A stretch of DNA of 64,000 bases, taken from an uncultured Gemmatimonadales bacterium (GTDB lineage: Bacteria; Gemmatimonadota; Gemmatimonadetes; Gemmatimonadales; Gemmatimonadaceae). A model generated the notes under the pieces. It was not told the DNA's origin. It ran no database searches and saw only the letters and a program-made list of their open reading frames with translations. The stretch lies in contig CAWBZV010000002.1 of assembly GCA_963793305.1 (NCBI GenBank), positions 256,001-320,000 on the forward strand. The letters are read 5' to 3'. Within the stretch, counting starts at the first letter, position 1; each line of letters starts with the position of its first letter. This document shows positions 24,954 through 37,533 of the stretch, piece by piece. Made by a program: the position numbers and the translations under genes.

Positions 24954-26314
24954 AAAAAATCGTCTCGCTCGCGAAGCGACACGGTTTCGTCTTCCAATCC
25001 TCCGAGATCTACGGCGGCGCCGGTTCCGTATGGGACTACGGCCCGCTCGGCGTCGAGCTCAAACGCAACGTCAAGGACCGGTGGTGGAACGCGATGGTCC
25101 GGAGCCGCGACGACATCGAAGGTCTGGATGCCGCCATCCTCATGCACCCGAAGGTGTGGGAGGCCAGCGGCCACGTCGCCGGATTCACCGACCCGTTGAT
25201 CGATTGCAAGACGTGCAAGGGTCGCTTCCGCGCCGACAAGCTCGTCGATGCGCAGTGTCACCAAAAGCCGAGTCGCCACCCTGGCGACCCTGGCACGCCG
25301 TGCGTGTTGACCGAGCCGCGGCAGTTCAACTTGATGTTCAAGACGTTCATGGGCCCAGTAGAAGAGTCAGCGGCGGTCGTCTACTTGCGCCCGGAGACTG
25401 CCCAAGGGATCTACGTCAACTTCCTGAACGTCCAGCAATCATCTCGCCAAAAAATCCCGTTCGGCATCGCACAAATCGGAAAGGCGTTCCGCAACGAGAT
25501 CACCCCGGGCAACTTCACCTTTCGAACCCGCGAGTTCGAGCAGATGGAGATGCAGTTCTTCGTCGAGCCGGGCAAGGACATGGAGGCGTTCGAGTACTGG
25601 AAAGCGAAGCGCATGGAGTGGCACCAGGCGCTCGGCCTCGACCCCGCGCGGCTCGAATTTCACCAGCACACGAAAACCGAGCTGGCGCACTATGCGAAGG
25701 CCGCGTTTGATATTCAGTTCGATTTCGGGGGCACGCTTGGCTCGCAAGAGATCGAGGGCATTCACAATCGCGGTGATTTCGATCTCACACAGCACCAGCA
25801 ATACTCGGGCAAGCGCTTGGAGTATTTCGACCAACCCAATAATCGTCGTTTCGTCCCGTATGTGGTCGAAACCTCGGTCGGCGCCGATCGCGTGACACTC
25901 GCGGTCCTGGTGAATGCCTATCGAGAGGAGACCGTCGAAGGCGAAGAGGAGGGGCGCACCGTATTAGCCCTGCATCCGGCACTCGCTCCGACGAAGGCCG
26001 GCGTATTCGCACTCGTCAAGAAAGATGGCATGCCGGAGTTTGCTCATAAGTTGGCGGAGGATCTGAGACGGCGTTTCCCCGTGTACTACGATGAGTCGGG
26101 CTCAATTGGCCGGCGATACAGAAGACAGGACGAAGTCGGGACGCCGTACTGTCTCACGATCGACGGCCAGACGATGACCAATGGCACGGTCACGATCCGC
26201 GGCCGCGATGACCTCAAGCAGGTGCGGATCGCCGCCGACCAGGTCGCGTCGCGCTTGCATGATCTGCTCGCGGCCGATCGGCCCCACGCACGAATCGAGG
26301 ATCTGGTTGGCTGA
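24932..26314 (+). CDS. glyQS: Glycine--tRNA ligase, homodimeric (alpha2) type
   Basis: [24 protein letters not shown] and [15 protein letters not shown]. Confidence 0.97.
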
Positions 26315-27821
26315 CCTGACGTTGGAGCGCCTGCGGACCGAGGCCAACGCCCTGATGGAAGAGATCTCGCGCGAGTTCTATCTCTCGCACGCGGGCCTCA
26401 AGCCGGACGCCGAGCTCGTGCCGATCTACGCGCGCCACGCCGCGGTCGTGAGCGACAATGCATTGGCCCTCGCGCGCGACGAGTATCGCCGCGCGGCAAA
26501 AGACTCGGAGGACCAGCGAGCCGCGCGCATTCTGCTCGACTTCGTAGTTGATACTCGCGCGCAGCGGGCGTTGGCGCCAAGCGAAGAGCGCGAGATCGCC
26601 TGGGAAAGCACCGCCATGGTGCAACTCGGCGACGGTCGAGCCATCCCCTACGCGCGGACAGCGATCGAAATAGGCAACGCGACGGACCGGCGGGAGCGCT
26701 CGGCACTGGACATGGCGCGAGCCACGCTGGTCGAGGCCGAGCTGGCGCCGATGCGGCTGGAGCGGTTCCAACGCGAAATCGATCTCATGGCCGGCATGGA
26801 GATCGCGCCGAGCTACAACGCCACGTTCGAGGCCTTGAGTGGGATCGATCTCGCGAAACTCATGGGAGAGTGCGAGGGCTTTCTCCGCGACACGGCCGAG
26901 CTCTGGCGCGAGCTCTTACCGCACGCGGTGAAGCGCTCGCTCGGCGTTCCCGTCAGCGATTTGACGCGCGCCGATGCGCTGGCCCTGTTCCGGGCGCCGC
27001 AATTCGACGGTGCGTTCCCGGGCAATGCCATGGAGCCCGCCGTGCGACGGCAGATGGGCGAGATGCGGATGGATCCGGACGCCGGTGGGCGCGTGCGCTT
27101 CGATGTCGGCGAGCGGGAAGGCAAGCGCGCCCGCGCGTTCTGTGCTCCCGTGCGTGTCCCCGAAGAGATCTACCTCGTGCTGCGTCCGCACGGAGGGCAA
27201 GGCGACTACATGACGCTGCTGCACGAGCTCGGGCACGCCGTGCACTTCGCGTACACGCGCGCGGATTTTCCTTTCGAGTATCGTTGGGCTGGTGACAACT
27301 CGGTCACCGAGTCGTACGCCATGCTCTTCGATCATCTGACCCAGAATCGGGGCTGGCTGGCCCGGTACACGGGGCTGGGCCGCGACCTGCCGGCATACCT
27401 CCGGGCGGCGGCCCTGGAGGAACTGCACTTTCTCAGGCGGTACTCGGCGAAGCTGATCTACGAGGTGCAACTGTACAGCGGCCGGCTCCCGTGGTCTGCG
27501 CTCCCCGATCTCTACGTCGAGACGCTCTCCTCGGCGACCTCGTTCCTCTACTCCCGCTCTGACGCCTTCGTCGACGTCGACCCGCGGTTCTATTCGGCCA
27601 GATATCTGCGGGCGTGGCAGCTCGGCGCGTTGCTCGCCCAGTCCCTCGTTGAGCAATTCGACGCCGACTGGTATCGCAACCCGCGCACCGGTCCCTGGCT
27701 CGTCGAGAACCTGTTCGCCGAGGGGCAGCGCGAGACCGCCGACGAAATCGCGCGCCGCGTCGCCGGACGGTCCCTGAGCTTCGCCCCGGTCATCAACGCG
27801 CTCGAGGGCTTGCTGGGTTAG
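26307..27821 (+). CDS. M3-like zinc oligopeptidase
   Basis: [16 protein letters not shown] (HExxH) and a downstream TESYA glutamate; TTG start. Confidence 0.8.
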
Positions 27822-27845
27822 CCGTTCGCAGTAGCTTTTGGCTCC

Positions 27846-29081
27846 GTGCACCAAGGCCACAGCGCGATCGAAATCGGGGCCGTGCGCGAGATTGTTCAGG
27901 CCCTGCTGACCGCCGAACGCCCGGACAATGTCTTCCGGTTCGCGCTAGAACGCGTGAGCCCTGTCGTCGGTGCCACATTCGCCTCGGTGTACCTGATCGA
28001 CGGCCCGTCCGAGCTGATGCGCCTCGCCGCGTCCTACAACTGGCCGGCCCGCTACGCCCCATGGCTCGACGACATGCGCGTCCGCGTCGGTTTCGGGCCG
28101 AGCGGTGAAGCCGCGAGCGAGCGGCGGGCGATCGAGGTGCCGGATGTCTTCGCCGACCCCGCGCTCGAGGACTGGCAGGATGTCGCGGCCGAGTTGGGCT
28201 TCCGCGCGCTGATCGCGCTGCCCCTGCAGACGGGCCACCGCGTGCTCGGCGCCGTGACGTTCTACTTCGCCGAGTCGGGCAGCCCGAGCGTCGAGCGGAG
28301 AGCGTTGCTCCGGATCGTCGCCGCGCAGATGGCGGCGACTGCCGAGAAGGCCGCGCTGATCGGCGAGTTGCGCGACGCCCAGCGGGTGCGCGAGGAGTTC
28401 CTGACGAACATCTCCCACGAGCTCCGGACACCGCTCACGACGATCATGGGCTACCTGGCCTTACTCCAGGATGAGCTGGCGGGCCCGCTCAGCGACCGCC
28501 AGCACAGCGATCTGCGCCACGCACGCGACGCCGGCGAGCGTCTCTTGGTGCTGATCGACGATCTCCTCGAGTTGACCGCGCTCGCCAAGGGCAGCGTTGA
28601 CGTCCGGGCCGACGCATTCGATCCCCGGGAGCCGCTCCGCGACGCCGTCGCGCGGTGTCGGCCGGCGCCCGCGCCCGGTCCCAAGATCGACGAGCCCACG
28701 GGCTTGCTACCCTGTGTCTGCAGCGACAGGGGAAAAGTCACGAAGATCCTGGTCAACTTGCTGGACAATGCGTACAAGTTCGCGGGTGATGGCGCCGTCA
28801 CGATCTCGGTCCACGTCGAGCACGACCGGGCGGTGTATCGGGTGTGTGACACCGGCGTCGGCGTTCCGCCCTCGTCCCGTGGGCTCATCTTCGACGACTT
28901 CCGTCAGGTCGATGGGTCGTTGACGCGACGCTACGGCGGGGCCGGCATGGGTCTCGCGCTCTCGCGTCGCCTGGCGCGCCTTCTCGGCGGGGAGATCGAC
29001 CTCGAGTCGGCGCCAAACGAGGGCTCGACGTTTACCGTCGGCATCCCCTTGGAGTACCGGCTGGCCGACGCGGCGAGTTAA
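27846..29081 (+). CDS. GAF-domain sensor histidine kinase (soluble)
   Basis: GAF region, SHELRTPL H-box, NLLDNAYKF, DTGVG and GAGMGL. Confidence 0.93.
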   Translation: MHQGHSAIEIGAVREIVQALLTAERPDNVFRFALERVSPVVGATFASVYLIDGPSELMRLAASYNWPARYAPWLDDMRVRVGFGPSGEAASERRAIEVPDVFADPALEDWQDVAAELGFRALIALPLQTGHRVLGAVTFYFAESGSPSVERRALLRIVAAQMAATAEKAALIGELRDAQRVREEFLTNISHELRTPLTTIMGYLALLQDELAGPLSDRQHSDLRHARDAGERLLVLIDDLLELTALAKGSVDVRADAFDPREPLRDAVARCRPAPAPGPKIDEPTGLLPCVCSDRGKVTKILVNLLDNAYKFAGDGAVTISVHVEHDRAVYRVCDTGVGVPPSSRGLIFDDFRQVDGSLTRRYGGAGMGLALSRRLARLLGGEIDLESAPNEGSTFTVGIPLEYRLADAAS

Positions 29082-29092
29082 CTTCCCTGGCC

Positions 29093-29362
29093 ATGCCGCC
29101 TACCGTCCAAGCCACCCGCACGTCCCTCGACGGCGAGTCTGTGCTGACGCACGCCACGCGCTTCTTTTCCCGCCAAAACTCGCTCTACCCCGCATTCCCC
29201 GAGAAACGCGGTCCCGCCTACGCGACATTCCGCGGGCAGGGCGGAGAAGAGATCACGATCGGCGTCGCATCATCGCCCGAGGGCGGCACCGCCGTCACCG
29301 GCTCATCGTACATGTTCGACGCCCAGATCGCGCGGTTCTTCTCGACGCTGCCACCCGCATGA
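29093..29362 (+). CDS. Small hypothetical protein (89 aa)
   Basis: Its stop overlaps the next ATG (ATGA). Codon usage looks genic. No motif recognised. Confidence 0.7.
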   Translation: MPPTVQATRTSLDGESVLTHATRFFSRQNSLYPAFPEKRGPAYATFRGQGGEEITIGVASSPEGGTAVTGSSYMFDAQIARFFSTLPPA

Positions 29363-29673
29363 CGGCTTTCGTCACGTCGCTTCGCGCGCGGCCCGAAACC
29401 ATCGTGCTGGGCAAAGGGATGACGATCCGCGTCGAGATGGCGGAAGTCTGGGACGCGGTTCGCGTAGAGACCCCAATCACCGAGCCGATTTCGGAGATCA
29501 AGGCCGCCGCGCTCAAAGCCCTCTATCCCGACGACCACTCGGACGCCGATTTCGTCGTGAAGCTCAATGGATACGAGATTCTCGACGAGAGCGTGCCGGT
29601 CTCGCAAACAGGAGCCATCGACGGCTCGACGTTGCTGGTGACGTTCCGTCGGCGTCGACCGGTTCGGTCCTGA
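29359..29673 (+). CDS. Ubiquitin-like (beta-grasp, YukD/EsaB-like) protein
   Basis: By-eye match to ubiquitin: EPISEIKA vs DTIENVKA, NGYEILDE vs AGKQLEDG, GSTLLVTFRRR vs ESTLHLVLRLR. No C-terminal Gly-Gly. Confidence 0.6.
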   Translation: MTAFVTSLRARPETIVLGKGMTIRVEMAEVWDAVRVETPITEPISEIKAAALKALYPDDHSDADFVVKLNGYEILDESVPVSQTGAIDGSTLLVTFRRRRPVRS

Positions 29674-30602
29674 CGGTCGCGTACATCTCGCACGCCGACT
29701 GCGGCCGGCACGACACGGGGTGGGGCCACCCTGAACACGTCGGCCGCCTCCGGGCGATCACTCGTGCGTTGCGTGATGACCCCGAGCTCTTCCAGCTGAT
29801 TGATCACGTCGAGGGCCGCCACGCCACGGTCGACGATCTCTCTCTGGCGCACGATCCCAGCTACATCGATGCGCTCGGCTCGATCGTCGCGCGCCTCCAG
29901 GAGCCCGCTAACCTGACACCGGACACGGTGGTCAGTCCGGGTTCGTTCGCGGCCGCGACTGCGGCGGTCGGCTGTGTTTTGGACGGCGTAGACCGGTCGC
30001 TCGATGGGCGCTCGATGAGAAGCCTCTGCGCGGTCCGTCCGCCCGGACACCACGCCCTGCGGGACGAGGCGATGGGGTTCTGTCTCTTTGGCAATGTCGC
30101 CATTGCGGCGCATTACGCGAGGCAGAGACGTGGTCTGGAGCGGGTGCTGATCGTCGACTGGGACGTGCACCACGGCAACGGAACGCAGGCGCTCGTCGAG
30201 CGCGACCCGGGGATACACTTTGTGTCCATGCACCAGTGGCCCTGGTACCCGGGCACCGGCGCAGCCGAAGATCGCGGACCGCATGAGTCGGTATGGAACG
30301 TGCCAATGCCCCCGGGACTCGCCCCGGGGGTCTACGTGGATGCGTTACTCGCGGCCGTGGACGCCGCGACGGCCGGATTTTCACCCGATCTCGTGCTGAT
30401 CTCGGCCGGATTCGACTCGCTCGCTGGCGACCCACTTGGCGGGTTCACGCTCGAAGTCTCTGACATGGTTCAACTTACGCGCGAGTTGGTCGGGCGCGCC
30501 GAGGGTTGGTGTCAGGGGAGGATCGTGAGCGCGCTCGAAGGCGGATACGTTCCCGAACGCGTCGGTGCGGCGTGCGTCGCCCATCTGCGGGCCCTCGCAT
30601 AG
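29670..30602 (+). CDS. Histone deacetylase family (AcuC/AphA-like) Zn-dependent deacetylase, apparent CTG start
   Basis: HPE, RPPGHHA, GFC, DWDVHHGNGTQ, SAGFD and EGGY. The HPE segment lies upstream of the first canonical start (29769). Confidence 0.93.
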   Translation: MTVAYISHADCGRHDTGWGHPEHVGRLRAITRALRDDPELFQLIDHVEGRHATVDDLSLAHDPSYIDALGSIVARLQEPANLTPDTVVSPGSFAAATAAVGCVLDGVDRSLDGRSMRSLCAVRPPGHHALRDEAMGFCLFGNVAIAAHYARQRRGLERVLIVDWDVHHGNGTQALVERDPGIHFVSMHQWPWYPGTGAAEDRGPHESVWNVPMPPGLAPGVYVDALLAAVDAATAGFSPDLVLISAGFDSLAGDPLGGFTLEVSDMVQLTRELVGRAEGWCQGRIVSALEGGYVPERVGAACVAHLRALA

Positions 30603-30615
30603 GTTTATTGGCACA

Positions 30616-31422
30616 ATGAGCACGTCGACCCCGCGCGTGCGTCCGACCCCCCCGCCAGCGCCAGCCATTCTCCGCCTCGTGCAGCTCGCTGTGCTGGGTC
30701 GCTGGCGAGCCACCGGGGAGCAGCTCTATCGGGAGGTCGTCCGGGTCGCGGATATCGGCCGCTCGCAGGAGGTACTCGTCTCCGGTTGCGGCGATGGCGT
30801 CACCGCCGAATGGCTGGCGCGCCGGACCGGCGCGTCGGTGACCGGAGTCGACGCAGACGGTGCCCGGATCGAGCACGCCGAGCAGCGGGCGCGGTCCATG
30901 CCAGTCCGCTTGCCGTTGTCCTACAGCCAAGCGCCGCTCGACGATCTCCCGCACGAGACCGCGGTCTTCGATGTCGCCATCGGCGAGCCCGCATTGGCCG
31001 CGGCGCGCGTCCCCAGCCGGGCCGTGTCCGAGCTGGTACGGGTCGTCAAGCCAATGGGATCCGTCGTGCTGCTCGAGCTCACGTGGGGCTCGGAGCTCTC
31101 GCGCGAAGAACGCGAGCTCGTCGTCGAGCGATTGGGCCTCCGCCCCCATCTGCTGGTCGAATGGAAGCAGATGCTGCGCGAGGCGGGCGTCGTCGATGTC
31201 GTCGTCGAAGACTGGACCTCCGCCGGAGGCACCCCACGCGATGGCCGCCCGGTGCACCTCACCTGGCAACAGAAGGTTCAAATCGCGACCCGTGCCTGGC
31301 GCAAATGGGGATGGCACGGCGCGCGCCGTGCAGTCGAAAAGGAGCTGTCGTTGCTGAGAGAGTTGTCGGATGAGCGGGCCATCGGGTTCCAGCTGATCAA
31401 GGGCGTCAAGTGGCGGAGCTGA
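30616..31422 (+). CDS. Class I SAM-dependent methyltransferase
   Basis: VLVSGCGDG motif I, VTGVD, FDVAI and RVVKPMG. Confidence 0.85.
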   Translation: MSTSTPRVRPTPPPAPAILRLVQLAVLGRWRATGEQLYREVVRVADIGRSQEVLVSGCGDGVTAEWLARRTGASVTGVDADGARIEHAEQRARSMPVRLPLSYSQAPLDDLPHETAVFDVAIGEPALAAARVPSRAVSELVRVVKPMGSVVLLELTWGSELSREERELVVERLGLRPHLLVEWKQMLREAGVVDVVVEDWTSAGGTPRDGRPVHLTWQQKVQIATRAWRKWGWHGARRAVEKELSLLRELSDERAIGFQLIKGVKWRS

Positions 31423-32124
31423 GCTCCGGCGTCCGCCTCTACGGCATCGTCAGCGCGCAGGAAGCGGACGGACGACAGAATGCCGGACGGCGCCTGCGTC
31501 GTCCCGTTCCGCGATCTTGCGGCGATTACCACCGAGTGTTCCCCCGGCGAAGCCTTCTCCTGGCGCCGCACTCCAGCCCCCCCAAACCTCGATACCTACC
31601 GGGGCGTCATCGAAGCGGTGTTCGAGCAATGCTCGATCGTCCCGGCGCCGCCCGGGATCATCTTTCGCTCGCGCCAGGCTATTGTGCGTTGGATGGAGCT
31701 TCATTACGTCGCGCTCAGCGACGCGCATGCGTTCATCGATGGCCGCGCGGTCGGGCGCGTGCACGTCGAGCGCCGCGCGCCCTTGCTCGCAGGAGCGAAC
31801 GTACGGCACGAGCTCCTCGCCGGCGAAGCCGTGGCCCGCGAGGTGTTCCGCTCCCTGTCGGGTCACGCCGTCACGTGGACCCCGATCGGGGGCGCCCCGG
31901 TCGGTGCGACGGGCGAATATCCCGCTGTCCCGGCGACGACGGGCGCAACGGCTGAATACGTTGCGTCGGACGCCTCGCAGGCGTCTTTCTTGATCGATCG
32001 CGCGCATTGGGCGGACTTCGAGGCTGCGGTCGCCGAAGAGGACCGGCGCGATGCTGCGCTCGGCGTCTGGGTATCCGGCCCCTGGCCGCCGTACGACTTC
32101 GTCCGATTGCAGTTCGGAGGGTAG
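31410..32124 (+). CDS. GvpL/GvpF-family protein with an apparent +1 frameshift at ~31450-31480
   Basis: N-terminal RLYGIV in frame 31410; FRDLAAI, IVPAPPG, ASFLI and C-terminal SGPWPPYDFV in frame 31480. Confidence 0.8.
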
Positions 32125-32127
32125 GCT

Positions 32128-33114
32128 CTGTTTTGCCCTGACTGCGGCACGTGGAACCGCGGTGTCGCCGTTCAGTGTGCGCGCTGCTCGGCTCCGCTTC
32201 CGGAAATCACCGGAGGGCCGGCCGAATCTCCGGATTCCGAGATCGGCGCGCTCCGACGCTTGACCGGCAATCGCTACCGCATCGTGCACCGCCTCGGCTC
32301 CGGCGGCATGGCCCACGTCTACTACGCCGAGCATGTGCAACTCGGCCGCCCACTCGTCATAAAGGTCCTGCACGCGCATCTGGCGCGCGAAGCGGAAATG
32401 CGCGAACGATTCCGGCGCGAGGCCGAGGCGGCAGCGCATTTAGTCCACCCGCATATCTGCCCGATCGTCGATTTCGGCGAGAACGATGACGTTGTCTACT
32501 TGTTGATGCCGTTCTTGGGTGGCGGCTCGTTAGCCGACCGTCTCGTCCGCGACCGCACGGTGCCACCAGTCTTCGCGGCCACGGTCACGGCCCAGGTCTC
32601 ATGCGCTTTGGATTATGCGCATCGCCGCGGCGTGATTCATCGAGACATCAAGCCAGATAATATTTTGTTCAATGACGATGGCTTCGCGCTGGTGACCGAC
32701 TTTGGCATCGCCACCGCGCGACGACATGGGCGCTTGACGGGCACGGGGCGAGCGATGGGGACGCCCCATTACATGTCGCCGGAGCAGGCCATGGGACGCC
32801 TCGTCGACGGCCGATCCGATCTGTATGCCCTCGGCGTCATGCTGTACGAGATGCTACTGGGATTCCCCCCGTTCAATGGCGCGGACTCGTATTCCGTCGG
32901 ATACAAGCATGTGCATGAGGCGCCCGTGCCGCCGGAAGTCGTCGACTCCCGCACGCCGGCGCCGCTCGCGGCCATCATTATGAAGTGCCTGTCGAAGAAC
33001 CCCGACGAGCGCTTTCAGCGCGGGAACGACGTAGCGGACGCGTTGTTACAGTACTTGGCCGAACAAGCGTCTTTGGCCGAGTTCCGGACGGCCTGGCTGG
33101 CGAGAGCGTCGTAA
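32128..33114 (+). CDS. Hanks-type Ser/Thr protein kinase with N-terminal Zn ribbon, apparent CTG start
   Basis: FCPDCG...CARC in frame upstream of LGSGGMA, HRDIKPDN, DFG and GTPHYMSPEQ. GGAGG lies 7 nt before CTG 32128. Confidence 0.93.
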   Translation: MFCPDCGTWNRGVAVQCARCSAPLPEITGGPAESPDSEIGALRRLTGNRYRIVHRLGSGGMAHVYYAEHVQLGRPLVIKVLHAHLAREAEMRERFRREAEAAAHLVHPHICPIVDFGENDDVVYLLMPFLGGGSLADRLVRDRTVPPVFAATVTAQVSCALDYAHRRGVIHRDIKPDNILFNDDGFALVTDFGIATARRHGRLTGTGRAMGTPHYMSPEQAMGRLVDGRSDLYALGVMLYEMLLGFPPFNGADSYSVGYKHVHEAPVPPEVVDSRTPAPLAAIIMKCLSKNPDERFQRGNDVADALLQYLAEQASLAEFRTAWLARAS

Positions 33115-33118
33115 CCGC

Positions 33119-33145
33119 TGTCGATTCCGGGGGTCCCCGTTCGAC
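33119..33145 (+). promoter_or_regulatory. Putative ECF42-type autoregulatory promoter
   Basis: TGTCGA (33119-33124), 17 bp, CGAC (33142-33145) upstream of the DGPF/ECF pair. Matches the ECF42 motif as I recall it. Confidence 0.65.
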
Positions 33146-33170
33146 AAGGGATGAACCCTAACCGGAGTCG

Positions 33171-33533
33171 ATGATGAAGTACCTCTGCCTCATCTACAGC
33201 AACGAGCAAGAAGACGCCAGCATGCCGGACGCCGAGCGCCAGGCGATGTTCGCCGACTATGGCGCGCTGACCGAGAGCATCACGCGCAGCGGCCATTACA
33301 TTGGCGGCGACCCGCTGACGCCGACGAATACGGCCACGACCGTTCGCGTGCGCAAGGGCAAGACACAAACGACGCACGGCCCGTTTGCGGAAACGCGCGA
33401 GCAGCTGGGCGGGTACTACAAGATCGAAGCGAAGGATCTCGACGAAGCCGTCGCGATTGCTGCCCGCATCCCCAGCGCGAAGAACGGATCGATCGAAGTT
33501 CGGCCGGTGATGGAGATCCCAGGGAGAGCATGA
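33171..33533 (+). CDS. YciI/DGPF-domain protein
   Basis: [23 protein letters not shown] and GSIEVRPV. Confidence 0.92.
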
Positions 33534-34777
33534 ACATCCAGAACGTCGTCGAGCGCGCGTTCCGGGAGGAATCGGGACGCGTGCTCGCGACGCTCATTCG
33601 CTTGCTCGGTGACTTCGACCTCGCGGAAGAAGCCACGGCCGAAGCCTTCTCGGCGGCCGTCGAGCACTGGCCGACGAGTGGTGTGCCCGCGAACCCGCGC
33701 GCGTGGCTGGTGTCGACGGGGCGCTACAAAGCGATCAATGCGATCCGACGGCGGTCGCGGTTCGTCGAAGTCGATCCGATGCTGGCGATTCACCAAGATC
33801 CGGAGATCGACGAGGCGGTCGTCGCGGACGATCAGCTGCGACTCATCTTCACGTGCTGCCATCCGGCGCTCGCGCCGGAGGCCCAGGTCGCGTTGACGCT
33901 GCGCATGGTGGGTGGGCTGGAGACCGAGAACATCGCGCACGCGTTCTTGGTCCCGGTGCCGACGATGGCCCAGCGCCTCGTCCGCGCCAAGGGCAAAATC
34001 CGCGACGCGGGCATTCCGTTCGTCGTGCCGCCACGTGAGGCGTTGCCCGAGCGGTTGGACGCCGTGCTGCGTGTCGTCTATCTCATCTTCACCGAAGGCT
34101 ACGCGGCGACGACGGGCGATGCGATCGTGCGCCACGCGCTCTGCGACGACGCGATTCGTCTCGCGCGACTGCTCGTCGCGCTCATGCCGGATTCGACGGA
34201 GGCGAACGCCCTCCTCGCGCTCATGCTACTCCACGACTCCCGTCGATCGACACGCGCGCGTGACGACGGCGAGCTCGTGTTGCTCGCCGATCAGGACCGG
34301 AGTCTCTGGGACCACGCGAAGATCGCCGAGGGCCTGTCGCGCGTCGAATCCGCATTGCGCGCGGGCCCCGCTGGCCCATACGCGTTGCAAGCCGCGATCG
34401 CCGCGCTCCACGCGCAGGCCCGTCGTCCGGAGGACACCGACTGGCGCCAGATCGCGGCACTCTACGCTCTACTCTTACGCCACGAGCCCACACCAATCGT
34501 CGAGCTCAATCGCGCCGCGGCCGTCGCAATGGCTCAGGGGCCGGAGGCGGGCTTGCGCTTGATGGACGACCTCGCGTCCCGCGGCGATCTCGCCGACTGC
34601 CATTTGCTCTACGCCGCCCGCGGCGACCTGCTCAAGCGACTCGGCCGCAACGACGCAGCCGTAGCCGAGTATCGCACGGCATTGTCGCTGGCCACTGTTG
34701 ACGCTGAGCGAAAGTTCTTCTTGCGGCGCATCGAAGAATTGAGCGCCACAAAACAAGTCGGCTCGTCAGTTGGCTAG
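33530..34777 (+). CDS. ECF sigma factor with C-terminal TPR extension (ECF42-like)
   Basis: [24 protein letters not shown] and [13 protein letters not shown]; coupled to the DGPF gene. Confidence 0.92.
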
Positions 34778-34789
34778 CCTGACGAGCCG
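34759..34789. terminator. 11-bp perfect hairpin between convergent genes (terminator or REP-like)
   Basis: CGGCTCGTCAG, 9 nt loop, CTGACGAGCCG. No clear U tract. Confidence 0.5.
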
Positions 34790-34869
34790 CCGAACGGAGC
34801 CCCATTATCCTCCCCGTATACGTCTATACGTGTAACCTATCCGGGGCTCAACGCAGGAACAGTAGTCAC

Positions 34870-35265
34870 TCACACGAGCGCAGTCAATTGGGCAAATCCT
34901 AACGCGTGTAGAACTGCACGTTGTACAGCGCGAAAATGATGCGCCGACAGAGAATGATCCGCCGATAGAGACGCCGATGATAGAAGCGGAGATAGGCGCG
35001 TGAGCGATACGGCGGAAATCATGTCGCCCTTAATCCAGCTATCGACTCGTCGGTGCAAAAACCGGTAATGACCGGCGCGGATTCGAACGTGGTGAAGCTC
35101 AAGTGGTGTGGGTTTCGATGTGCTGAAGGGCACAACAAGCACAGTTTGTGGACCCGGTGAGAGCACCACCACAGGTCGGCGCTTGGTCATTTCCGGTGGA
35201 ACAAACCCGGTGGAGTAATCACACAACAGGACAGTTCCGGGCGCGGGCACAAGGTGAATTGGCAT
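34870..35265 (-). CDS. Orphan PemK/MazF-superfamily (YifN-like) protein
   Basis: PGTVLLCDYSTGFVPPEMTKRRPVVVLS, VVPFST and SWIKGDMISAVSLTRL. Visibly more AT-rich than its neighbours. Confidence 0.8.
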   Translation of the reverse strand: MPIHLVPAPGTVLLCDYSTGFVPPEMTKRRPVVVLSPGPQTVLVVPFSTSKPTPLELHHVRIRAGHYRFLHRRVDSWIKGDMISAVSLTRLSPLLSSASLSADHSLSAHHFRAVQRAVLHALGFAQLTALV

Positions 35266-35328
35266 CCGCCACTCTGCCAACCCACCGTCAGTCGACCGTC
35301 AGCGCACGCACCCGATTATCGTTCCTAC

Positions 35329-37533
35329 GTGCTGATCGACGTAGCGCTCCCGCTCCCGCTATTCCGGAACTTCACGTACGACTCCGACGCCCCAGTCGCA
35401 CCGGGCGCACGGGTCGTCGTGCCGCTCCGTGGTTCGCGGGTAATCGGCATCAGCCTCGGCCCGCACGAGGGCCCGTCCGCGGTAGCCGCCCCACGCAAAA
35501 TCCTCGACGTGCCCGACGCCGAGCCCGCGCTCGCGCCGCACATGCTGGCCCTGTGCCGGTGGATCGCCGAGTATTACGTGGTCCCATTAGGCCTAGTCGT
35601 ACGCAGCGCCCTGCCGGCCGCGCTGCTCGGCGCCGACACTCCGCGTCCGGCGCCGAAGGTCCAGAGGCTCGCGCGACTCGCCCGAGATATCCCCTCGCTG
35701 ATGGAGCGCGATGCACTGTTCGCTCGCGCCAAGCGCCAGCGCGAAGTGTACGAGCTGATCGAGACCCTCGGCGGACGAACTCCGGTCGCGCACCTGATCA
35801 AGCAGCTCGGCGTATCGCCGGGTGTCGTGCACGCGCTCGAGACACGCGGCCTGATTCAGATCGACGAGGATGTCGTCGAACGCGACCCGTTCGCCGCACG
35901 CCCGAGCGACCCGGCACGTCACACACCGACACCCGCGCAAACCGCGGCCATCGACGCGCTCGGCGCCGGCCAACCGGGCGAGGTGTTCTTGCTGCACGGT
36001 ATCACGGGCAGCGGGAAGACACTCGTGTATGTCGAATTTCTACGCCGCCTGATCGACGAACGCGGCCAGACCGCGATCGTGCTCGTCCCCGAAATCGCCC
36101 TCACGCCGCAGACCGTCGATCGATTCCGCGCGGCATTTGGTGACCGCGTGGCCGTGTTGCATAGCGCGCTCAGCGATGGCGAGCGGTCGGATGCGTGGCA
36201 CGCGCTCAAGTCCGGCCGCAAGCGCATCGCGGTCGGCGCCCGCTCGGCCGTCTTCGCGCCCCTCGAGAACCTGGGCGCGATCATCGTCGACGAGGAACAC
36301 GAAGGGACGTACAAGCAGGGCGAATCCCCGCGCTATCACGCGCGCGAGGTCGCGATCGTCCGCGCACGCCTGCAGGGTGCGGTCACGGTTCTCGGAAGCG
36401 CGACGCCCAGCCTCGAAAGCTGGTCGAACGCCTCGTCGGGCAAGTATCGCTTGCTCTCGCTCCCGGACCGCGTGGGCGGCGGCCGTCTCCCCCATATCGC
36501 GGTGCTCGACATGCGCCGCCCGAGCGATGCCGCTGCGCCGGTGTCACCAATGTTGCCGCCGCTGGAGGCAGCGCTCGCCGAAACGCTCGCCCGCGGTGAG
36601 CAATCGATTCTCCTACTCAACCGCCGCGGCTACGCGGCATTCGTCCAGTGCGGCATCTGTGGCAACGTCGCCGTGTGCCCGAATTGCTCGATCTCTCTCA
36701 CCGATCATCGAACGCCGCCACGATTGGTCTGCCACTATTGTCTCCACGAGGAGCCGCCACGGGAGACGTGTGCGCGGTGTGGCGGACGGACGCTGCGACG
36801 ACGGGGCCTCGGCACGCAGCAGGTCGAGCGGCTCCTCGCCGAGCGCTTTCCCACCGCCCGCATCGCCCGCATGGACGTCGATACGACGACGGGAAAGTGG
36901 GCCCACGCCGAGATCCTCGACCGCGTGGGGCGCGGCGAGGTGGACATGTTGCTCGGCACCCAGATGATCGCCAAGGGACTCGATTTCCCGAACGTGACGC
37001 TCGTCGGCGTGATCGACGCCGATGTCGGCATCAATCTCCCGGATTTCCGCGCGTCGGAACGCTGCTTCCAGCTGCTGAGCCAAGTCGCCGGCCGCGCCGG
37101 TCGTGCCCAGAAACCCGGGCGCGTTTTCATCCAAACCCGCTTGCCGGCGCACCACGCGGTGCGCTGTGCCGTTGCGCATGACTACGCATCGTTTGTTCGC
37201 GAGGAGCTCTGCGGCCGGCACTCCCCGCCGTATCCCCCGACAATCCGGATCGCCAACATCGTATACAGTGGCACTGACGAACAGGCGACGGCGCGATTCG
37301 CCGAGGACAGCACGGCTTGGCTCTCGCGCCTGCCGGCCGATGTGAAGATCATCGGGCCCGCCCCGTGCCCGGTCGAGCGGATCAAAAACCGGTGGCGTTG
37401 GCACGCCGTACTCAAGGCCGAACACCCGGCCGAGCTCACGCGGTTGGGGTTGTACTTCATGCGTCGCGTGACCGTCCCATCGGCCGGGCAGCTCCGCGTG
37501 ACCTTCGACCGCGACCCCGTGGCGCTCCTGTGA
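35329..37533 (+). CDS. priA: Primosomal protein N' (replication restart helicase)
   Basis: GITGSGKT, VPEIALTPQ, DEEH, two Cys clusters, GTQMIAKG and QVAGRAGR. GTG 35329 follows TATCGT. Confidence 0.97.
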   Translation: MLIDVALPLPLFRNFTYDSDAPVAPGARVVVPLRGSRVIGISLGPHEGPSAVAAPRKILDVPDAEPALAPHMLALCRWIAEYYVVPLGLVVRSALPAALLGADTPRPAPKVQRLARLARDIPSLMERDALFARAKRQREVYELIETLGGRTPVAHLIKQLGVSPGVVHALETRGLIQIDEDVVERDPFAARPSDPARHTPTPAQTAAIDALGAGQPGEVFLLHGITGSGKTLVYVEFLRRLIDERGQTAIVLVPEIALTPQTVDRFRAAFGDRVAVLHSALSDGERSDAWHALKSGRKRIAVGARSAVFAPLENLGAIIVDEEHEGTYKQGESPRYHAREVAIVRARLQGAVTVLGSATPSLESWSNASSGKYRLLSLPDRVGGGRLPHIAVLDMRRPSDAAAPVSPMLPPLEAALAETLARGEQSILLLNRRGYAAFVQCGICGNVAVCPNCSISLTDHRTPPRLVCHYCLHEEPPRETCARCGGRTLRRRGLGTQQVERLLAERFPTARIARMDVDTTTGKWAHAEILDRVGRGEVDMLLGTQMIAKGLDFPNVTLVGVIDADVGINLPDFRASERCFQLLSQVAGRAGRAQKPGRVFIQTRLPAHHAVRCAVAHDYASFVREELCGRHSPPYPPTIRIANIVYSGTDEQATARFAEDSTAWLSRLPADVKIIGPAPCPVERIKNRWRWHAVLKAEHPAELTRLGLYFMRRVTVPSAGQLRVTFDRDPVALL

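Follow-up and report, generated by a model that had tools for sequence, protein, structure and literature searches.

A ubiquitin-type protein gene and its constant neighbor within a mosaic six-gene block of Gemmatimonadaceae

Do six genes that follow each other almost without spacing form one functional system? The question is raised by a 64,000-nt stretch of contig CAWBZV010000002.1 (positions 256,001 to 320,000; assembly GCA_963793305.1) of an uncultured Gemmatimonadales bacterium from the family Gemmatimonadaceae, hereafter the window. Here a block of six genes encodes, in this order, a small protein without a known family (g1), a small ubiquitin-like protein (g2), a histone deacetylase (HDAC)-family protein, a class I methyltransferase dependent on S-adenosylmethionine (SAM), a GvpL/GvpF-like protein and a Ser/Thr kinase with a Zn-ribbon. 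The initial annotation of this DNA had proposed that all six constitute an undescribed protein-modification or signaling unit. Comparative gene order splits the block into a pair, a frequent neighbor and family-level add-ons. We consider it fairly probable that the six-gene run is a family-specific conserved gene order composed of separately conserved parts, in which the only invariant unit is g1–g2, likely a two-protein complex of a KA1/SRPBCC-like protein with a ubiquitin-family protein that lacks the Gly-Gly end.

The comparison covers 40 loci, one from each of 40 genomes in this order, window proteins being mapped by tblastn and unknown intervening open reading frames (ORFs) assigned to Pfam families; 26 further genomes of the window's own family, chosen by GvpA status, were mapped likewise. 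In what follows, f1 is the own family, f2 and f3 are sister families of the same order, f5 and f6 are other families of the class, and f8 is another family. All these relatives are kin, hence they are not independent of each other. Two unpublished genomes, G157 and G419, enter the tallies of g2, of GvpA and of the g1 paralogue g1' described below, G157 also giving one row of the alignments of g2 (A1) and g1 (A2); no conclusion depends on either.

The gene g1 stands next to g2 in 45 out of 45 genomes, and its stop codon forms an ATGA or GTGA overlap with g2 in 43 of 44 distinct relatives, as well as in the window (ATGA at 29359), which points to translational coupling. The two proteins would likely be made in equal amounts, forming a complex. 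Divergent versions of the two genes (g1-like and g2-like) remain side by side in f5 and f6. The homologue of g2 occurs as a single copy in 261 of the 401 genomes sampled from the phylum, being nearly universal in the order (88 of 93 genomes in the own family, 161 of 166 in f2, and all five in f3) and rare elsewhere in the phylum. The pair is carried by roughly 250 genomes; the own genome has one g1-family gene only. Prediction of the g1–g2 complex yielded a score of 0.00, which carries no weight for or against binding. In one genome, G270 (locus L082), the g1-like and g2-like genes appear as a single 203-aa ORF, and we have rejected this fusion, as it is right at the junction that the sequence diverges from those of its relatives; a frameshift or assembly indel is the likely cause.

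The rest of the block is less constant. The backbone order, with variable members in parentheses, is Pyr_redox, class II aminoacyl-tRNA synthetase, M3 peptidase, (histidine kinase), g1, g2, (MoxR/DUF58/BatA), HDAC, (methyltransferase), (CorA), (GvpF-like), kinase, (MR_MLE), PriA. An orthologue of the histidine kinase (HK) found upstream of g1 in the window lies at most 152 nt upstream of g1 in 24 out of 32 own-family loci and in none of the eight sister-family loci. The methyltransferase gene is found in eight related loci only (five of the 40 and three of the 26 further ones), and a CorA gene is present inside the block of some relatives. A full-length kinase orthologue (61–98% identity) is present in all 26 further family genomes. 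The GvpF-like gene is missing in 9 out of 48 family genomes but, when present (in 23 of the 26 further loci, among others), is always located just upstream of the kinase gene, at a distance of 3–10 nt (once 76 nt) in 15 loci. In f2 and f3 all eight loci have the order g1–g2–HDAC–MR_MLE–PriA, with no HK, methyltransferase, GvpF-like or kinase gene. As the variable parts differ across the 40 loci, the six-gene run is a mosaic within a syntenic block, and as housekeeping genes (that of the aminoacyl-tRNA synthetase upstream, PriA downstream) belong to the same conserved order, co-occurrence of its members is not independent evidence of their joint function.

These data bear on the proposal of the initial annotation, by which all six genes, with or without the HK, constitute one modification or signaling system, in which the small proteins would be substrates of the enzymes and the GvpF-like protein a scaffold. 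Both in the window (Table 1) and in G435, a genome of the same genus, the genes share one direction and overlap or lie apart by at most 13 nt, and a scan of 26000–35400, itself uninformative, gave six terminator-like sites compared to 4.4 ± 2.3 expected, none of them above chance inside the block. On the other hand, the genes are not conserved together, given the sporadic methyltransferase, the CorA or MoxR/BatA insertions, the losses of the GvpF-like gene and the families retaining just g1–g2–HDAC, and hence we regard a single six-gene system as very improbable. Tight co-directional packing is ordinary for bacterial genes, and in a single genome it overstated the unit; the signal beyond chance comes only from conservation, for parts of the block and not for the whole. 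The HK upstream and the GvpF-like/kinase pair downstream may be later, family-level additions, possibly sharing transcription with the pair but not required as its partners.

As judged by its predicted model and sequence profile, g2 is a ubiquitin-family beta-grasp protein, and in this respect the initial annotation of a beta-grasp, ubiquitin-like protein in the block has been borne out. The AlphaFold2 (AF2) model (pLDDT 90.7) has the ubiquitin-type beta-grasp fold; a Foldseek search with it yields 391 matches in the PDB at E ≤ 0.001, with ISG15, NEDD8 and ubiquitin at the top and BilA also among them (E about 1e-5, TM-score about 0.8 on the target). By sequence, the profile built from A1 matches the structures of ISG15 (1.8e-5), FAT10 (2.6e-4) and BilA (6.8e-3). 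Among 1.84 billion representatives the same profile finds only 295 proteins, mostly relatives of 80–125 aa, and also a few eukaryote-like proteins with repeated ubiquitin-like domains. No Pfam family is matched by g2 at E ≤ 0.01, ThiS/MoaD (PF02597) included, and there is no NCBIfam or PADLOC match. Two lysines of g2, Lys48 and Lys68, are invariant. To our knowledge, bacterial proteins with true ubiquitin-type sequence and fold are few, and the known ones are sulfur carriers, tags handled by E1 and E2, or secretion adaptors. The order studied here, from a poorly studied phylum, provides a ubiquitin-type protein without the Gly-Gly end as a near-universal single-copy gene.

The partner protein g1 has a well-predicted model (AF2, pLDDT 91.4) with a beta-alpha-beta4-alpha fold, in which the invariant motif RGQGGEE (alignment A2) forms a hairpin. 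The closest folds are Rv2186c (Z 10.1), the regulatory domain of CIPK14 (Z 10.1) and the KA1 domain of Chk1 (Z 9.4), followed, as a lead only, by the C-terminal domain of 1v8c, a Thermus "MoaD-related protein" (Z 8.3). Foldseek finds no match for g1 at E ≤ 0.001, nor are there matches in Pfam, NCBIfam or PADLOC; in the ESM Atlas only unnamed Gemmatimonadota clusters are recovered. Profiles of g1 and g1' compared with solved structures by sequence give nothing significant, 1v8c not being recovered. That g1 might regulate the nearby kinases as a kinase-associated (KA1) protein was considered and not adopted, since f2 and f3 keep g1 with neither kinase nearby.

The g1 family is not confined to the neighborhood of g2. 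A paralogue, g1', of approximately 90–100 aa and without annotation, was observed at loci L084–L088 and L135–L165 of f5, f6 and f8; every named relative of g1' is entered as a "hypothetical protein" of a Gemmatimonadota metagenome-assembled genome. Comparison of g1' with g1 (hhalign, probability 99.2%, E 7.7e-20) demonstrates their homology. In 30 of 30 f5/f6 loci g1' is directly upstream of MoaD–MoaE in the same orientation, and one f8 locus has g1'–MoaD–MoaE followed by MoaA, making 31 out of 31 loci; the MoaD neighbors score 56–78 bits with the ThiS/MoaD family model. Genomes of f5 and f6 with the g1-like/g2-like pair also carry g1'. Hence, in every context examined, a gene of the g1 family lies upstream of a gene encoding a beta-grasp protein, and mainly on this basis we infer that g1 binds g2 and that proteins of the g1 type serve beta-grasp proteins as dedicated partners. 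The paralogue g1' is possibly an accessory of molybdopterin synthase not described before, raising the possibility of a new player in molybdenum-cofactor synthesis. The g1 family being coupled to g2 here and wired to MoaD–MoaE in sister lineages, the idea of a beta-grasp-binding accessory becomes testable for two unannotated families.

The same arrangement invites a different explanation, namely that g2 is a conjugatable or sulfur-carrying ubiquitin-like protein akin to MoaD, ThiS, TtuB or SAMP, with g1 as a synthase-like or activating partner and the tail of g2 processed to a reactive end. Apart from the g1' operons, it could draw on the C-terminal tail of g2, RRRRPVR(S), which is conserved and aligned with LRLRGG of ubiquitin, and on the divergent g2-like proteins of f5 and f6, which end in PRF[RHKT]G with a single conserved Gly (4 of 4). 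However, the tail in f1–f3 contains no Gly in any of 45 alignment rows, so that a Gly-Gly end is absent; the g2 profile retrieves ubiquitin-type proteins and, at E up to 1, no MoaD or ThiS; and no E1, E2, JAB or deubiquitinase domain was identified among the scanned ORFs around the pair (14 in the window, 24 in relatives and 28 in f5/f6 loci, the scan covering these ORFs only). We thus consider conjugation or sulfur transfer by g2 improbable. The likeness to MoaD–MoaE consists in a small beta-grasp gene beside a gene for a small alpha/beta partner, as well as in g1' opening the g1'–MoaD–MoaE operon, whereas g2 is not of the ThiS/MoaD family, g1 is not MoaE, and the window locus has no genes of cofactor synthesis.

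The preferred reading casts g2 as a non-conjugated ubiquitin-like adaptor or regulator, and two other known systems are instructive for comparison. Ubiquitin-like proteins of the YukD/EsaB type are thought to be adaptors rather than tags (for the role of YukD, see PMC1779556). They resemble g2 in having the ubiquitin fold without a Gly-Gly end, and an f5 homologue of g2 matches YukD weakly (E 1.2e-4, 23.2 bits, the cut-off being 27). Unlike in that system, there are no genes of type VII secretion, g2 of the window has no YukD match, and the g1 partner and the RRRRPVR tail are specific for this lineage. The Bil system contributes its ubiquitin-like protein BilA (PDB 8tyx), which g2 matches both by sequence and by Foldseek (E 6.8e-3 and 2.8e-5, respectively), but no E1, E2 or deubiquitinase gene is found near g2, g2 has no terminal Gly, and, being single-copy in nearly every genome of the order, it is not an island gene.

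The frequent neighbor of the pair, the HDAC gene, encodes a protein matching PF00850 over positions 1–297 of the 298-position profile (cut-off 27.9 bits; Table 1). Its translation shows PPGHHA, DWDVHHGNGT, SAGFDS and EGGY, which we take to be the catalytic His-His pair, the Asp/His/Asp metal ligands and the Tyr. The nearest solved structures are those of HDAC6 (4e-91 with the tandem of domains and about 2e-49 with one domain), followed by the 307-aa "lysine deacylase" 5zmp (3e-61), while acetylpolyamine amidohydrolase (APAH) 3q9b matches at only 3e-25 and is not the closest relative. As the protein is nearest to HDAC6 and the lysine deacylase and far from APAH, its substrate is more likely to be a protein than a polyamine.

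Besides being a class IIb deacetylase, HDAC6 binds the free ends of ubiquitin. The window recalls it in two respects, since the catalytic domains of HDAC6 are the nearest solved relatives of the window protein and a ubiquitin-like gene adjoins the HDAC gene; unlike HDAC6, the window protein is a bare 310-aa catalytic domain without the ubiquitin-binding zinc finger, and its link to g2 consists of gene order within a single order. Within that order, the adjacent HDAC6-like lysine deacylase would be the most plausible client of g1–g2, either regulated by the pair or acting on it as a substrate. A bolder version would have g1-type proteins as partners of beta-grasp proteins in general (MoaD in some Gemmatimonadota families, ubiquitin-type proteins in others), and g1–g2 as a new conjugation-independent module controlling an HDAC6-type deacylase, that is, a prokaryotic counterpart of the HDAC6–ubiquitin link, tied in one family into His- and Ser/Thr-kinase signaling; we deem this version unlikely to hold as a whole.

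Several points weigh against the picture of a g1–g2 complex with the deacylase as its client. The binding of g1 to g2 is a deduction from gene context. The Arg-rich RRRRPVR tail of g2 might dock on the acidic GGEE hairpin of g1, yet this suggestion draws on two lineages only, both motifs being present in f1–f3 and both changed in f6. The KA1/SRPBCC-like assignment of g1 may express a common arrangement only, Z of 8–10 being in the range where this can be the case. The HDAC link may follow simply from gene order inside one order, where the entire neighborhood is syntenic: the HDAC gene comes straight after g2 in 23 of the 40 loci and behind a 6–7 kb MoxR/BatA insert in 12 (in three others a contig end cuts the locus, and in two HDAC was not seen), and in f5 and f6 the g1-like/g2-like pair has a Na/Ala symporter and an aminotransferase as its neighbors, with no HDAC nearby. 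Finally, gaps within the loci were measured between tblastn matches and not between annotated gene ends.

The MoxR AAA+/DUF58/BatA-type operon of 6–7 kb has a constant place of insertion, between g2 and HDAC, in 12 loci, and in three more loci MoxR follows g2 and HDAC was not seen; the loci on record for these observations are L042–L047, L050, L061, L064, L073, L075, L076 and L078. In G278 (L040), the Pyr_redox, M3 peptidase and kinase genes are each represented by two tblastn pieces, likely due to assembly indels.

The layout of the block is given in Table 1. All junctions described in the initial annotation have been confirmed from the list of ORFs and by reading the DNA directly: an 11-nt gap between the HK stop and the ATG of g1, the ATGA of g1/g2, the CTGA at 29670, in which the stop of g2 shares bases with the sole possible HDAC start, a 13-nt gap in front of the methyltransferase ATG, a 13-nt overlap of the methyltransferase end with the GTG of the GvpL/F-like gene, and a 3-nt gap between the stop of the latter and the first codon of the kinase. 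The domain calls for HDAC, the class I methyltransferase, GvpL/F and the Zn-ribbon Hanks-type kinase are likewise upheld by Pfam.

Table 1. Genes of the block and the adjacent histidine kinase gene (coordinates are positions in the 64,000-nt window).
Feature	Coordinates	Strand	Remarks
GAF-HisKA-HATPase_c histidine kinase (HK)	27846..29081	+	Pfam; context, 11 nt upstream of g1
g1, 89 aa, no known family	29093..29362	+	ATG start; beta-alpha-beta4-alpha model
g2, 104 aa, ubiquitin-family beta-grasp (predicted)	29359..29673	+	AF2, Foldseek and profile matches
HDAC-family (class IIb-like) lysine deacylase, 310 aa	29670..30602	+	PF00850, 281.7 bits
Class I SAM-dependent methyltransferase, 268 aa	30616..31422	+	Methyltransf_11, 57.5 bits; ATG 30616
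Divergent GvpL/GvpF-like gene	31410..32124	+	GvpL_GvpF PF06386, 66.2 bits; GTG 31410; frame broken
Zn-ribbon + Hanks-type Ser/Thr kinase, 328 aa	32128..33114	+	Pkinase, 164.9 bits

No promoter-like sites were found in the region 26000–35400, and a weak hairpin of five pairs is seen at the HDAC stop (30586–30599). In the RNA runs X16–X20 only 0.05–0.07 of the sampled words are present. The contig of run X4, a more divergent relative, has two bases fewer at 29091, in the 11-nt HK–g1 spacer, which is a strain difference.

Both the HDAC and kinase genes seem to lack a usual start codon. In the HDAC frame there is no ATG, GTG or TTG before 29769, and the conserved N-terminus starts at CTG 29670; the aligned start in relatives is ATG, GTG or, in one of them, CTG, and no difference at 29670–29672 is listed in contigs of four runs. 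The kinase frame has no ATG, GTG or TTG before 32260, its conserved N-terminus starting at CTG 32128 (32128–32130), 7 nt after GGAGG. G278 and G435 share this CTG; among relatives, the first codon of the N-terminus x-F-C-P-[DE]-C-G is ATG, GTG or CTG, and none of the differences listed for X1 record 6 and X3 record 23 falls on it. CTG 29670 and CTG 32128 are possibly true initiation codons. The kinase domain scores well above the Pkinase cut-off of 31.7 bits, and the translation contains GSGGMAHVY, VIKVL, HRDIKPDN, DFG and SPEQ, presumably the Gly loop, the VAIK-type Lys, HRD, DFG and the APE-type motif.

The GvpF-like gene of the window is split over two frames, frame 3 from 31410 onward and frame 1 at 31480–32124, the N-terminal GVRLYGIV being encoded in the separate frame from GTG 31410. 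The extra base at 31479 (AA where others have A) is absent from G435 and from contigs of X1, X3 and X4, coming from three studies; X1 may be the source sample and thus is not independent. Without this base the gene reads through, as in G435 (237 aa) and three other relatives, and hence the break probably stems from an error of assembly or else arose very recently. The source assembly may contain further homopolymer indels.

The GvpF-like protein passes the PF06386 cut-off of 23.6 bits both as the window fragment (Table 1) and in the intact form (71.5 bits in G435, 106.7 in G278), and shares with GvpF/GvpL the N-terminal LYGIV and C-terminal GPWPPY motifs. Dissimilar to them, its gene is adjacent to a kinase and not to gvp genes, and the protein shares only 23% identity with the canonical GvpF (270 bits) encoded in the same genome. 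That genome has a full gas-vesicle cluster on contig C3 (825–831 kb), with three GvpL/F and three GvpA/J-type genes, so the label "orphan GvpL/F" of the initial annotation fits by position, between the methyltransferase and the kinase, and fails for the genome, where gvp genes reside on another contig.

It may be asked, then, whether the GvpF-like protein and the Zn-ribbon kinase are an outpost of gas-vesicle genes that regulates or assists vesicle formation, with no relation to g1–g2–HDAC. The own gvp cluster speaks for it, as does the distribution of GvpA, detected in 34 of the 101 genomes sampled from the family. The GvpF-like gene is next to the kinase in 26 out of 26 family genomes with GvpA compared to 13 out of 22 without it, all nine genomes lacking the GvpF-like gene also lack GvpA, and in six genomes (G214, G157, G244, G072, G171, G036) gvpA genes are situated 7–12 kb from g2 on the same contig. 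Against it, the 13 genomes that keep the GvpF-like gene and in which GvpA was not found are 92–100% complete, the identity to canonical GvpF is low, and the second set of 26 genomes was itself picked by GvpA status. Moreover, the nine losses fall into about six genera, and, with 67 of the 101 genomes lacking GvpA, six independent losses would all occur in GvpA-less lineages with the chance of about 0.09, which is only suggestive. Overall, we see a gas-vesicle function of these two genes as conceivable, though rather doubtful; the reading of the block as a mosaic around g1–g2 is retained.

An anti-phage defense island, with a kinase and methyltransferase resembling those of MADS or PD-T4-6, would be another way to account for the block. 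PADLOC reports the kinase as matching the PD-T4-6 models (up to 328.9 bits) and mad6, and the methyltransferase as matching mad2 (48.1 bits), and in NCBIfam the kinase matches MAD6 at 6e-40. The MAD6 score, however, is 137.4 bits with the cut-off of 460, so far below it that these PADLOC and NCBIfam hits should be ascribed to generic kinase and methyltransferase domains; the best NCBIfam model for the methyltransferase is the DVU_1556 family (71.7 bits, the cut-off being 155). Neither g1 nor g2, HDAC or the GvpF-like protein has a PADLOC match, and the kinase is an orthologue occupying a single position in all 26 further family genomes. Fixed single-copy orthologues in housekeeping synteny are not the pattern of a mobile island, and a defense role of the block is hardly credible.

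As regards novelty, the statement of the initial annotation that no described system has this combination of genes agrees with our search, which found none in the full-text literature, subscription journals being outside its coverage. Within the same coverage, including passages of PMC1779556 and PMC1796856, neither these families nor the g1–g2 and GvpF–kinase pairings were found described, and the same holds for the C-terminal domain of 1v8c. The novelty lies in g1–g2, that is, in an undescribed g1 family coupled to a ubiquitin-type protein.

Downstream of the kinase, at 33171–34777, both the window and G435 have a YCII-domain gene and an extracytoplasmic function (ECF)-type sigma factor gene (DUF6596, TPR), while in most relatives this place before PriA is occupied by an MR_MLE (enolase-superfamily) gene. 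Just upstream of PriA, an ORF encoding a PemK/MazF-like toxin (PF02452, E 1.7e-10) is located on the minus strand at 34870–35280.

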